Part shown: one piece after another, positions 40,977-46,358 of the stretch
Layout: each line of letters begins with the position of its first letter
How positions within the stretch are numbered: position 1 is the first letter of the stretch
Assembly: GCA_963693365.1 (NCBI GenBank)
Contig: CAVNZM010000017.1
Span: 3,577,375 to 3,641,374 of the forward strand
Direction: 5' to 3'
DNA length: 64,000 bases
DNA from: Amoebidium appalachense
Taxonomy: Eukaryota > Protista > Ichthyosporea
Position numbers and translations under genes: made by a program
Notes under the pieces: model-generated
Told to the model about the DNA's origin: nothing
The model's database searches: none
Seen by the model: only the letters and a program-made list of their open reading frames with translations

Positions 40977-42176
40977 ATGGATGGATACGAATGGGTAGAT
41001 GATGATGAAGACTTTCAGAGTGTCTCTGGTCACACCGTGACACAGATGATGATGGGACGGACACCATACCTGTCTCTGATTCTGCCCAACCGGTAACAAA
41101 TGCATGGTCCAGAGTCGGAGCCAACAATCCAATAGTGGTAAAGCTGGATGACGTGGAGGGGGATATTGCCCGTGTTTTGCGGTCTGAAGTTACATCCATA
41201 CTTAAGAACATAACAGAGCAAGCACGACAAAGCAAAGACCCGGTTGACTTTCTTCACATGTACCTGACCCCAAAACTCGTTCTTGAACTATCAGAGATAA
41301 TCAATGAGAACTTAACGAAAAATGGCAAGGACACTCTTCGTAGCGATGAGCTTGAAAGTTTTCTCTGCACGGTATTCTGTCTTGCTATCTATCAGACCTC
41401 TGCAACCAGCTTCTTTGATACACGAAACACACACCTGTACCCCCTTGCTTCCACCCAAAAGGTGCAATACAAGCGCTTCATGGAGATCTTGGGTGGCCTA
41501 TCACCACCAAGCGATCGTAGTGGCAGCGGCACGTCATGGTTACCGGTGCGAACGGCTGACCAGCGTATCTTCGACTTTGAGGAGGCGGTGTCTAAACAAT
41601 GTGCCAGGTTAACGTATACACCGGACAGCATTTTGGTCCTTGATGATGATCAATTGGCCCTGCGGTCATCGGATCAGGACTCTACCGGCATAGCTGTGTT
41701 AAACAATCCGGCCAAGCGGGTGGGGCCAGTTCATCATGGGGTTGCATCACTGGCAACGGGCAAGTACGTGGTGGGCCACTGTCAGCTCTCCAATGAGACC
41801 GTTGTGCAGTGCTGGAAAATTCTCTACAAACGGATGACTGGATACCACCCATCAACACCGCTGCGTCCGAACAAAATAGCACTTGATCGGGGGGGGGGTA
41901 TCAGTCCACACACTTGAACGCAGCAGTTTCAAAATACGGGCTCAAAATTATCGGTACGCATAAGCGTGTTCCAGGCTATCCGTTCTCGTTTGGTGATGTT
42001 AAGCCCAAAAGCGGGGTGTTCATTATTCCCTGTATCGGTGAACGTGCAGCTTACTGGGCCGTGCGGCTAACAAATGGTTGGAAATAACCCCCCCCCCCCC
42101 CCCCTCCCCACCTCCCCCCCCCCCCCCCCCCCCCCCGTTCACGTTATCTCCAGGAAAAAATAAGAAAATTCGGAAG

Positions 42177-42210
<34 letters not shown>

Positions 42211-42411
42211 ATGCATGCACAGTGACATAGACACACACCAATAGCTTGCGCGTGTGGGTGTGCACACTGACACACACACATACACACACACACCCACACA
42301 CACACACCCACACACACACACCCACACACGCACCCACCCACACACCCACCCACACACAACAACAACACACGCACACACACAATTTTTTCCTTTCAGGCAA
42401 CCCCCCCCCCC

Positions 42412-42475
<64 letters not shown>

Positions 42476-43017
42476 ACTCTGGCACACACTCACACCAAAA
42501 AAAAAAAAAAAAAAAAAAAATCCTGGCACGATTTGGACTCGAATAAACAGTGTATGTGTATGCCCAACTTGAACGGGAGGGGCGGCAAGGGGAAGCCTGC
42601 TTGAAGGGATTACAGGGTGCGGTGGTGGTGGTGTGTTTGTGTCTGGGGGGGGGGGGGGGGGGGGGGGGGGGATCTGCAGGGCTAGAGATATGCTACATTC
42701 CTCCTGTAACTTACCCCTCTGTACAGTGGGTGGAAGGCAATTAAAGGAATATGCAGTCGGATACCGTGGTGGCTTCGGCAATGTTGGGCTGCTGAATACA
42801 ACAGAGCCCAATCTGGGCCCAGGGCAGTGGACTTACAGGCTGGAACGGGGTTATCGCAGGTTGGTGTTCAACGGTTATGTGCACATGCCTGTTTTCAATA
42901 CTAATATTGGCCACCATTCAAATGTTTTACATGTTGGCAATCGAATTCCTGCAATAGTAAGTGGGAAATGAGTTAAATCTTTGGGTTCAGGTGGTCGGGA
43001 ACGGACAGGGTGGGTAA

Positions 43018-43048
<31 letters not shown>

Positions 43049-43467
43049 AGTGACTGTGTATATATCTGGGTGGGATGGTTGGGAATGGATGGAGAGGGGT
43101 TACCATTTCGGGGGGGGGGGGGGGGGGGGGGGGGGGTGGGGTATGTGCGGCGTACAGAGGGCTGGGGGTGGGGGTGGAATGGACTGAAAGAAAGGGGGGG
43201 GGGGGGATTGACGTCACGGGAGATCATTACAGATCAGGGGTGCCTATCTTGTCTACTTATGAACTCTATTCTCTATCCCGTCATCTTTTCTTGGTCCTTT
43301 ACAGTCCTCCACTAACAGTTCCTCCCCTTTCCTTCACTACAACACACACTCTCTCCAGACATACAGCCTCCCTCCCCCCCCTCTCACCCTCCTCCTCTCT
43401 CTCTCTCTCTCCCTCGAGCTCTCTCTCTCTCCCTCTCTCCCCTTCTTTCTCTCTCTCTCTCTCTCTC

Positions 43468-43541
<74 letters not shown>

Positions 43542-46358
43542 TCCTTTTCCCCACCTCTCCTCCCGCCACAGAACCGCAGGCCAGTCATCTTTAAAGGGAA
43601 GCTCTGCCGACGGTCTGCTGCCAGGGATGGTCGAGTACCCAAGTGACCGCGGCGATCGATTTGTCGGTGGGTCAGACAGTGATGGAGAGACTGAGCCTGA
43701 GGGCATTGGTCTACCAGCAGAGAACACCCGCTCTCTTCCTCCCCCGCCAATGGTACACATCACTCAGACCCAGGGAACCCCGGACTGGTTAAATATGCGC
43801 ATGTTTTCCATCACGTCGAGTGGGGCCAGCCGAGCTTTGCGGGCCTTGGAACCCGGGGAACTACTACCGGGGCATGAGTACATTATGACGGATGTGTGTG
43901 GGTTTAGGTATGGTGTTCGGCAGGCACCACAGGGGCCTGGGGGTGGACATGCTACCATGGACAAGGATGCCCTTCTGGCGCTGTCCAAGGCAACCTTAGA
44001 GGCCAAATGTGATGAGCTCGGTATTCGACATCGCAGCAACGACAACAAGGAGAAGTTGGCAACGTACATCATTTATTTTTATAATCAACACCTAGACTCA
44101 CAGCAGCAAACGGGAGTGGACTCCGACAGCAACACCCGTCATAATGCACCAGTCCATTCGCACCCACCACAACCACGATTGCCGACCTACAACCCCACTA
44201 CACTTGTGGACCTACCACAACCAGCCACAACAGGATCGTTTGCGCCGGCGTATGCCGCAACACCACAGCAAACACTCCGCCCACCAATTACCACCCGTCC
44301 CACACATGCACCCACAACAACACACACGGCAACACCACATGTACAGCAGACACCCTACCCACCATTCCCGCCTCGTCCTACGCAGGCACCCGCAACAACA
44401 TGCGCGGCAACACCACAGCAGACACTTCAGCCGCCAATTACGCCCCGTCCTGCACATGCACCCGCAACAACAAACACGGCAACACCGCAGCAGACACCCC
44501 AGCCACCAATTCCGCCCCGTCCTACACATGCACCCGCAACAACACACACGGCAACACCACAGCAGACACCCCGCCCACCTATACCGCCCCTTCCTACACA
44601 TGCACCCGCAACAACACACGCGGCAACACCACAGCAGACACCCCGCCCACCTATACCGCCTCGTCCAACACAGGCGTCCGCGTCCACACATGCCCCACCA
44701 ACAACCTCACCACCGCCCAATGCAGGCCCATCCAATATGAATGTGGCACTTCTTGATTCTTGGTTTATGGCACCAATCAAGTCCCCGGCACTCAGCAAAG
44801 GCCGAGCCAATGAACCCATTGCGCGGTCGAAAATTCCCCTGTTTTTAAGGGAACAATCAGAGTGGGAGGTGGTGAAAATTGACGAGCACGGTCTAGTTTG
44901 CGCCGAAAATGCACGGTATCTTGCAACATCGGTGGATGGGTATGCAACTCTTCGCAATGCGAACGGGGACGTCATTCGTGCGGTGGTGGAGATTAAAACG
45001 ATGATGGAACCGACTACGGAGGCGGACGCACGCTTACGTTCGGCGCACCCACTGGGGGGGCTCTTTTCAACATGCACTGCTGGCACCCCTCAGTTTCGTT
45101 ATTTGGTTCACACCAGTGACTACCGCAACCAGGTTCTCCATCACGCCACCGTTTATAACGCCGAGTATGTGCTGTATGTCGTTGCCAGCATGGATTCAAT
45201 CATTTACGCCACCCTTATTGTTGTTGACAGGCAACTACGTGTCGACTACAAGGAAATCATCGAGCATATCGCAACATCGCATTTGCAGTGGATATACGGA
45301 TCCGAGCCGATACCGGAATTCCCCGAACCGGTTATTGCGAAAACCTACGCCGTGGATATGGAAACGATAACGAGTCGACCCTTGCACTCTGGCGCGCCCT
45401 CAATGCATTGGTCGTTAACAACAAGGGGCCGCTCCCCCCCGCACGGTACATTGTTCCCTCGGCGGTTGCGTGGTGGAACGCGATAAAGGGCGGGATAGAT
45501 GTTTATTCGCGGATGCTGAAAAACGTGAAATTGTCCTTCTACGGACTTTCAACGGAGGGATGTCTCGTTCTCCGGTTGATTATGACTCTCGCACTGAATG
45601 CCTTCCAAGACTACCGGATCGTGTGCAATGTGGGGCCCATCACACAATCCAGCGTAAATTCAATCACTGCCGTGCGCGACAAATTAAACAGTTTTATGCC
45701 GTTCCACACCTTTCTCGGTCAGATTGTTCGGACTTACCGTCTGCCAGGTCTGGTGGCCGACTACACACGTGATTTGGGAAACCTGAGAAACCACCTTCAG
45801 GATATGGATCCCAACGTCAAAACAACCGTTCCGGCCAAGCCGCGCAATCTGCGGAAACACTTTGGGTCTCCCAGTCACACATTGAACGAATTACGGAGGG
45901 ATAACCACAAAGAGCACTACCAAATCACGAAGCGCAACCCGATAACGAACCGCAAAATCAAAGGAAAGTGCCGGTTGTGTTGCTACACCGTCAAGCCAAA
46001 ACCGAAAGTCACAGGTGTGGCGCAATACATGCATGACGGCAGTGACGAGGCTTCAACGGGAGGAAGTCAGGATGAAAGTGGTGGAACGAACAGTTCGGGT
46101 GGAGATAATGGGGGCTCAGGTGGAAAGGAAAGGCCCCCTAAAAAGAAAAAACGTCAGTACGGGGCCAGATTAGGCGGACGTACACACTCCCTGTGCTTTC
46201 GCTGTGACGTCTATCTGTGCTACGACAGCAAGGGTACGATGGATTGTTGGCGGCGGTGGCACACACACAAAGTCCTGAAAAAGCCCGAGTATTACGCAGA
46301 CTTGCGTGAGTCAACGAAGCGGCCTGCGAAAAAGGCCGCGGAAAAAACCACCAATTAG
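40977..46358 (+). CDS. piggyBac-like DDD transposase with inserted YqaJ/lambda-exonuclease domain and C-terminal Cys-rich domain (2 introns; ~3 frameshifts in this copy)
   Basis: LVLDDD (~41640), NPAKRVG, IALDRG (~41885), IIGTHKR; Yqa[47 protein letters not shown] (~45490), [24 protein letters not shown]. Confidence 0.8.
44255..44690 (+). repeat. Coding minisatellite, ~69-bp (23-aa) unit x ~6
   Basis: [27 protein letters not shown] units. Confidence 0.9.

Follow-up and report, generated by a model that had tools for sequence, protein, structure and literature searches.

A piggyBac-type transposase of Amoebidium appalachense with a lambda-exonuclease-type nuclease between its second and third catalytic aspartates

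The element and its composite gene

We analysed 64,000 nucleotides of the ichthyosporean Amoebidium appalachense (GenBank assembly GCA_963693365.1, contig CAVNZM010000017.1, positions 3,577,375 to 3,641,374 of the forward strand), hereafter the window. It carries a DNA transposon whose main gene encodes, in this order, the first two catalytic aspartates of a piggyBac-type transposase (D1 and D2), a nuclease of the lambda exonuclease type with a SAP motif, and then the third aspartate (D3) and a Cys-rich tail (Table 1). We put the probability of this architecture, with the nuclease lodged between D2 and D3, at about 0.95. An earlier reading of the same DNA (the original prediction) had listed the motifs LVLDDD, ALDRG and GTHKR, the YqaJ-type nuclease set, the third motif and the Cys-rich tail, all of which were located as claimed; the SAP motif, the ends of the element and the target duplication were absent from it.

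Table 1. Features of the transposon and of its main coding region, in window coordinates.
Feature	Position	Strand	Remarks
Left target-site duplication, CTAC	40014..40017	+	empty sites carry a single CTAC
Whole DNA transposon, 9,039 bp	40018..49056	.	empty sites; a contig of run X4 starts exactly at 40018
Left 9-bp terminal inverted repeat CCCCACTGT, begins CCCC	40018..40026	+
Left non-coding arm, common to other copies	40018..40865	+	contig depth, variant letters, loose end at 40865
22-bp perfect palindrome, left copy 1	40031..40052	.
22-bp palindrome, left copy 2	40088..40109		lies in a 29-bp stretch that matches the right end perfectly in inverted orientation
First coding block: N-terminal DNA-binding/dimerisation helices, D1, D2, start of piggyBac insertion domain	40977..42076	+
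D1, LVLDDD	codon 41642-41644	+
D2, ALDRG	codon 41885-41887	+
GTHKR	41953	+
Predicted intron 1, GT..AG, phase 1 at both ends	42077..42726	+	profile positions 366 and 370 meet across it
Second exon: remainder of three-strand piggyBac insertion domain	42727..42859 (may reach 42956)	+	profile 370-410, E 1e-8
Predicted intron 2	42860..43571 (alternative phase-compatible pair 42957-43584)	+
Lambda-exonuclease-type motif I (T-Q-G-T-P-D-W-x3-R ... T-S-S)	43753..43830	+	W 43786, R 43798
SAP-like DNA-binding motif within nuclease	43960..44090	+	weak here (SAP_new25 E 0.077)
72-bp x 5.7 in-frame tandem repeat, Pro/Thr/Gln-rich linker	44257..44672	+
PD-(D/E)xK nuclease core	44728..45372	+	grouped with YqaJ clusters of the ESM Atlas at 0.95; profile E 1e-56
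Nuclease residues	E 44812 (G..NE), D 44935 (ATSVDG), E 44989 and K 44995 (EIK), Q 45130 (YxxQ)
Frameshift between nuclease and D3 half	45373..45378	+	lesion of the window copy; in contigs of X2 and X5
RNase H core resumes, with C-terminal dimerisation helices	45378..45900	+	W-N 45474-45479, D3 45498-45500
piggyBac-type cysteine-rich domain with low-complexity insert	45969..46358	+	Cys-rich tail 45969-46262; stop 46356-46358
22-bp palindrome, only right copy	49018..49039	.
Right terminal inverted repeat, mirror of CCCCACTGT	49048..49056	-
Right target-site duplication, CTAC	49057..49060	+	empty sites

Five separately translated segments of the window gave six matches on a profile of homologs with a single open reading frame (ORF), at positions 37-310, 310-366, 370-410, 434-551, 546-763 and 752-1016 (E 4e-66 to 1e-8). 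Since these matches fall in order, the motif set is not a product of chance. The Pfam profiles that the original prediction had proposed for comparison, DDE_Tnp_1_7 and YqaJ, both matched the window copy, but with E 0.0016 (ORF 41009-41914) and E 0.05 (43582-45483), below their curated cut-offs. The C-terminal cysteine-rich domain characteristic of piggyBac is present (residues 432-594 of 6x67 were matched; the match to 5lme is weak). The 72-bp tandem-repeat linker was seen in none of the aligned homologs.

Contigs were available from runs X2 (a 2011 study), X4 and X5 (a 2024 study), which may be sources of this DNA, and from runs X9 and X11, which cover only short parts of the stretch. It had been proposed that the nuclease and C-terminal ORFs are joined by one frameshift near 45375. 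This frameshift is a real lesion: one contig each from X2 and X5 covers 44695-46360 with no indel, and the single-ORF homologs have no counterpart of it. A programmed frameshift was considered and rejected, as the homologs continue in one frame. It is however not the only break. A run of 10 G at 41889-41898, beside or within the D2 motif, disrupts the frame of the window, while contigs have 5 fewer G (X4, X5) or 1 more (X2), all in frame; the break is thus most likely an assembly slip. The run has 5, 10 or 11 G across these versions, and the introns of this genome abound in long runs of G and C; this run may be both unstable in vivo and difficult to assemble. The ATG at 40977 and the D1-D2 ORF (41009-41917) are in different frames and no contig has an indel there, which leaves either a second lesion or an unseen upstream first exon; a tiny intron restoring the frame was discarded, as its length (17-26 nt by eye) would be insufficient. 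Between D2 and the nuclease, phase-compatible GT-AG sites and homology indicate that two introns are required.

Homologs and predicted fold

A search with the N-terminal half alone, which contains no nuclease, returned 139 proteins at E <=0.001, and two more proteins bring the set to 141. Twenty-four of these span both D2 and D3 (the remainder being mostly fragments), all 24 have the nuclease between them, and 20 of them are full-length as far as the Cys-rich tail. Twenty-three of these proteins went into the profile; the less circular test is the N-terminal search itself, where 54 matches were at least 400 aa long, 21 of them matched the D3 segment of the window, and all 21 had the nuclease segment upstream. 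D2 and D3 are 476-782 aa apart in 22 homologs, unlike in canonical piggyBac, where a short all-beta insertion domain keeps them ~100 aa apart (101 aa, D346-D447, in the accessible text of PMC7351741).

Both halves of the protein are conserved across the alignment of 23 homologs. D1 and D2 occur in 23/23 and D3 in 20 of the 21 long enough to include it; the nuclease residues W, R, E, D, E, K and Q are found in 23, 23, 22, 21, 21, 22 and 21 proteins, respectively, and the metal-binding and catalytic ones are kept in 21/23 at a mean identity of ~25%. A W-N pair, aligned to piggyBac Y439-N440, is also maintained (W in 21/23, N in 22/23). The family thus has an RNase H-type DDD triad flanked by piggyBac-like domains, together with the PD-(D/E)xK fold, motif I and Q-x2-H of the YqaJ/lambda exonuclease family, even if the best homolog reaches only E 0.0018 with Pfam YqaJ, below cut-off. 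SAP (PF02037) scores above cut-off in 9 of the 34 homologs scanned, and the profile matches SAP structures. Named members are hypothetical proteins of Plasmodiophora brassicae and one fragment from a diatom transcriptome set; an Atlas cluster has 56 members, all eukaryotic, and of the 2 whose phylum is known the commonest are oomycetes. The taxonomic range is poorly sampled, as 18 other Atlas clusters have no or only generic organism names.

Separate trees for the transposase half and the nuclease, each of 21 rows after three partial proteins had been set aside, recovered the same supported subgroups, and the distances in the two parts are correlated (rho 0.61, 0/5000 permutations, 20 rows). 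Because of this agreement, the sequences point to one old fusion and not to repeated insertions. The deep branches are without resolution, and the window protein falls in no supported group. One homolog, P0099, was considered as a nuclease-free active form and rejected: it is also devoid of D3, has altered D1 and D2 contexts, and is read as an internally deleted member. Weak word-index searches with the nuclease segment gave 0 of 805 candidates among longer proteins and, with the nuclease region against shorter proteins, one match, a fragment of the same family; with alignment A1 there were 4 matches. The nuclease may still have a close relative that stands alone as a separate protein. A scan of loci with the D3 segment found none, and the loci returned with alignment A3 (5 from metagenomes, 2 viral) matched only over a short stretch at nuclease motif I and had no transposase parts, so that neither scan yielded a second element with its ends. 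A single-sequence search of the PDB with the N-terminal half gave nothing meaningful.

An AlphaFold2 model of the intact homolog P0060 (87 sequences) has a predicted local distance difference test (pLDDT) score of 91 and a predicted template modelling (pTM) score of 0.85. In this model, D1 lies on strand 1 and D2 just past strand 4; strand 5, the three-strand insertion domain and the nuclease (~398-715) follow, and D3 opens the next helix. The three aspartates are predicted to fold into one RNase H core, with the normal insertion domain kept and the nuclease placed after it. Residues 59-874 superpose on piggyBac 117-534 in a single superposition across the insert (Z 26.0, root mean square deviation (rmsd) 3.5 Å, 381 aligned), with only 12-16% of residues identical to piggyBac and piggyBat in the structural alignments. 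Retroviral integrase cores align from ~200 to 812, again across the insert, and Foldseek agrees. The family profile matches Trichoplusia ni piggyBac (6x67) at 125-230 and 428-594 (E 4.6e-10), and mimivirus R354 within the insert.

For the insert itself, residues 410-741 superpose on lambda exonuclease 14-226 (Z 15.6, rmsd 3.6 Å, 200 aligned), and the matches rank from lambda and LHK exonucleases (Z 15.1-15.6) to herpesvirus SOX (Z 9.8) and Dna2 (Z 9.4). The family W and R sit 10 and 14 residues past the start of the lambda-aligned range, the same offsets as lambda W24 and R28, which we take to form the 5'-phosphate pocket. Because W and R are invariant and these offsets agree, the nuclease is, by analogy, most likely a 5'-end-loading exonuclease that loads on 5'-phosphorylated ends. 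A trimer test of the nuclease domain scored 0.00, which speaks neither for nor against a trimer.

By the evidence reached, the nuclease-in-core layout is real, family-wide and a variant of the piggyBac kind. The original prediction of a single polypeptide holds for the intact homologs, which are single ORFs in this order and whose predicted fold closes one core around the insert. Had the YqaJ part been an independent ORF or a nested element, it should have had its own reading frame or termini; self-comparison of the window revealed no separate termini around the nuclease, only the ends of the element and the 72-bp repeat. Profile and model match piggyBac on both sides of the insert.

Ends, target site and surroundings

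Empty sites define the limits of the element: contigs leave the window at 40017 and resume with the sequence after the right CTAC in 13 cases from X2, 9 from X5, 10 from X4 and 2 from X9. Because the empty sites carry one CTAC, the target duplication is of 4 bp. This length and the terminal inverted repeats that open with a C-run at both ends are as in piggyBac, whereas the one insertion examined duplicates CTAC instead of the canonical TTAA. The three copies of the 22-bp palindrome (two left, one right) are the only perfect palindromes of at least 20 bp in the window. The ends of piggyBac are asymmetric, with a palindromic internal repeat bound by the Cys-rich domains (accessible text of PMC7351741); by analogy, the 22-bp palindromes are likely transposase binding sites and the counterpart of this repeat.

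In X2, X4 and X5, contig depth over the left ~850 bp is ~4-10x the coding depth, and variant letters occur. Contig depth is a hint and not a copy number, and here it hints that non-autonomous relatives probably exist. The element is inserted in a repeat of very high copy number, whose summed depth is several hundred-fold above the coding depth. This repeat (37460-40017 and 49057-49400) is AT-rich, has internal degenerate repeats of ~200 bp, and in some copies shows CTAA in place of CTAC at the insertion site; it may be a candidate non-autonomous element or satellite. An Rfam search of 37400-51500 gave no match.

The element possibly holds a second spliced gene (46640-48733, minus strand), convergent with the transposase and putatively coding. 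It would start at an ATG at 48733, in a context that resembles that of the transposase ATG, with a short Ala-rich first exon; the non-repeat islands lie at ~47330-47030, 46920-46830 and 46780-46640, and a 20-mer is duplicated at 47091 and 47165. This candidate had no match to Pfam above cut-off.

The window is eukaryotic and rich in microsatellites and retroelements; the features that follow were all classified by eye. An Ngaro/DIRS-like retrotransposon with a tyrosine recombinase is present twice, in nearly identical form, on the minus strand (7815-11911 and 23446-27548), with a gag-like ORF, reverse transcriptase (RT)/RNase H and a recombinase with an RGGAS-type motif. Fragments of Gypsy-like long terminal repeat (LTR) retrotransposons (RT, RNase H, integrase, protease, chromodomain-like tail) occur at 3312-7015 (minus) and 12472-16724, and pieces of a non-LTR retrotransposon (APE endonuclease, RT) at 20678-23534 and 27806-28744, split by the tyrosine-recombinase element. 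A degraded spliced gene at 32666-37442 (plus), with introns filled with TG repeats, shows Plavaka/CACTA-like transposase features (RLFYPRVSYYITEWPEG; RRF..MPRYSSFRHF), and an intron-rich host gene at 51470-61400 (plus) resembles XMAP215/Dis1 (TOG/HEAT repeats).

Possible roles of the nuclease and relation to known systems

According to the accessible text of PMC7351741, piggyBac makes 3' nicks, forms hairpins 4 nt into the flank, performs a 4-bp staggered transfer, and leaves complementary 5' overhangs on the donor; its Y439-N440 contacts the hairpin and its insertion domain lines the target-DNA channel. By analogy, the present transposase would nick the 3' ends of the element, form hairpins 4 nt into the flank, open them, and carry out a 4-bp staggered strand transfer. 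Because Y439-N440 aligns with the conserved W-N, the hairpin route is probably kept and the nuclease would not be needed for second-strand cutting. Excision would leave donor flanks with complementary 4-nt 5' overhangs, which are normally resealed seamlessly. We suggest that the nuclease would chew these 5'-phosphorylated flanks 5'-to-3', removing the overhangs and blocking resealing, and that repair of the gap would then use the sister chromatid or homolog as a template and so restore the element, which would turn a copy-neutral move into a copy gain. We give this role, 5'-3' resection of the donor flanks with repair steered to copy the element back, a little less than an even chance. The broader picture, of an ancient, protist-wide piggyBac-type lineage that amplifies itself with its own end-resection enzyme, overriding seamless excision and forcing homologous donor repair, is more doubtful.

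Several points weigh against donor resection, or against extending it to this locus. The window copy is broken and unable to make the full protein, and the structural model is that of the homolog P0060. Lambda exonuclease resects as a ring-shaped trimer, and a transposase dimer cannot simply form such a ring, which is hard to fit. The homologs P0089 and P0128, sisters in both trees, have lost several catalytic residues of the nuclease while keeping W, R and an intact DDD triad; if they are still mobile, nuclease activity would be dispensable in at least one lineage. Finally, no excision or repair product was seen, the empty sites being uninserted paralogs of the target repeat. P0089 and P0128 are also natural nuclease-dead controls.

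Other explanations must be set against donor resection. An accidental nesting, in which a separate YqaJ gene or element inserted in a dead transposase or the locus was mis-assembled, might be suspected from the broken state of the window copy and the two introns it needs, but is very improbable given the insert within one ORF in 24/24 homologs, the congruent trees, the confident single-chain model, and the contigs that each cover nuclease core to tail in two studies. The nuclease could also replace the hairpin step by cutting the non-transferred strand at the ends of the element. There is a precedent in TnsA of Tn7, a PD-(D/E)xK nuclease that acts beside a DDE transposase, and the nuclease is here tethered near the transposase core. 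Yet the hairpin-contacting W-N is conserved, the insert has a lambda-type end-loading motif I with lambda exonuclease as its best match, and the two homologs devoid of nuclease catalytic residues retain the triad, which makes this role rather improbable.

Slightly less improbable, though still unlikely, are two further roles. The nuclease may act in cis to trim the 4-nt 5' flaps that remain on the transposon ends once the hairpins have been opened and the strands transferred, a clean-up that ordinary piggyBac leaves to host enzymes. Such flaps are obligatory in the piggyBac pathway and make few transposase contacts (accessible text of PMC7351741), a short distributive cut requires no trimer, and the monomer-type relatives Dna2 and SOX also match the insert; however, they do so far below the lambda and LHK exonucleases, and canonical piggyBac manages with no nuclease. 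Alternatively, the nuclease-SAP module may mainly bind DNA or ends (target capture, chromatin tethering, end protection) or act outside transposition, e.g., by producing breaks or resected ends within repeats, for the element to exploit. The SAP motif within the module, the invariance of W and R, which extends to P0089 and P0128 despite their lost catalytic residues, and the insertion of the window copy in a very high-copy repeat are consistent with this role, whereas the retention of the catalytic residues across such divergent proteins argues for selected catalysis.

Whichever role applies, a nuclease is fixed here in a transposase of the piggyBac type, the one best understood in structural terms. 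Because intact natural single-ORF versions exist, the role of the nuclease can be tested by changing a single residue of one or the other active site. The piggyBac insertion site appears to tolerate a putatively active domain of 330 aa, and a piggyBac-type enzyme appears able to use a non-TTAA target, both of which are relevant to builders of gene-delivery tools. If donor resection indeed makes this lineage self-amplifying, it would offer a direct handle on why ISL2EU, KolobokE and this group, which are unrelated, each gained a lambda-type exonuclease.

The family shares with piggyBac (6x67/6x68 of T. ni), piggyBat (9c0f) and Pfam DDE_Tnp_1_7 the DDD RNase H core, the helical dimerisation domain, the three-strand insertion domain, the W/Y-N-x2-K-G-G-x-D motif, the C-terminal Cys-rich domain, the 4-bp duplication and the C-rich termini, as well as asymmetric ends with palindromic internal repeats, as far as the accessible text on piggyBac goes. 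It differs by the ~330-aa nuclease and SAP after the insertion domain, by the resulting D2-D3 distance, and by its target duplication. With the lambda exonuclease/YqaJ family (3sm4, 1avq; LHK-Exo 3syy; mimivirus R354 5yeu) it shares the fold and the order of motifs W-x3-R, T-S/T, N-E, S-x-D, E-x-K and Q-x2-H; unlike lambda exonuclease, its nuclease is embedded in a transposase and interrupted by SAP, and no Red-beta-like partner was seen. The literature searched contains no description of a nuclease inside the piggyBac catalytic core, Repbase being outside this comparison. Repbase piggyBacX and piggyBacA are presumably divergent piggyBac-related groups, one of them from red algae and oomycetes; this family, which has oomycete members, may be the same group. 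ISL2EU, of the PHIS group, also combines a DDE transposase and a YqaJ exonuclease in one element (accessible parts of PMC4122938, PMC9179366 and PMC4482050), and the role of its exonuclease is stated as unknown in PMC4482050. There, the exonuclease is a second ORF beside a Harbinger/IS5-type transposase, whereas here a single polypeptide has the fold closest to piggyBac. In KolobokE, the nuclease lies downstream of a transposase domain of the hAT/P/MuDR type, the termini are RR..YY and the duplication is TTAA, whereas in the present family the nuclease lies upstream of D3, and the element of the window has CC..GG termini and duplicates CTAC.

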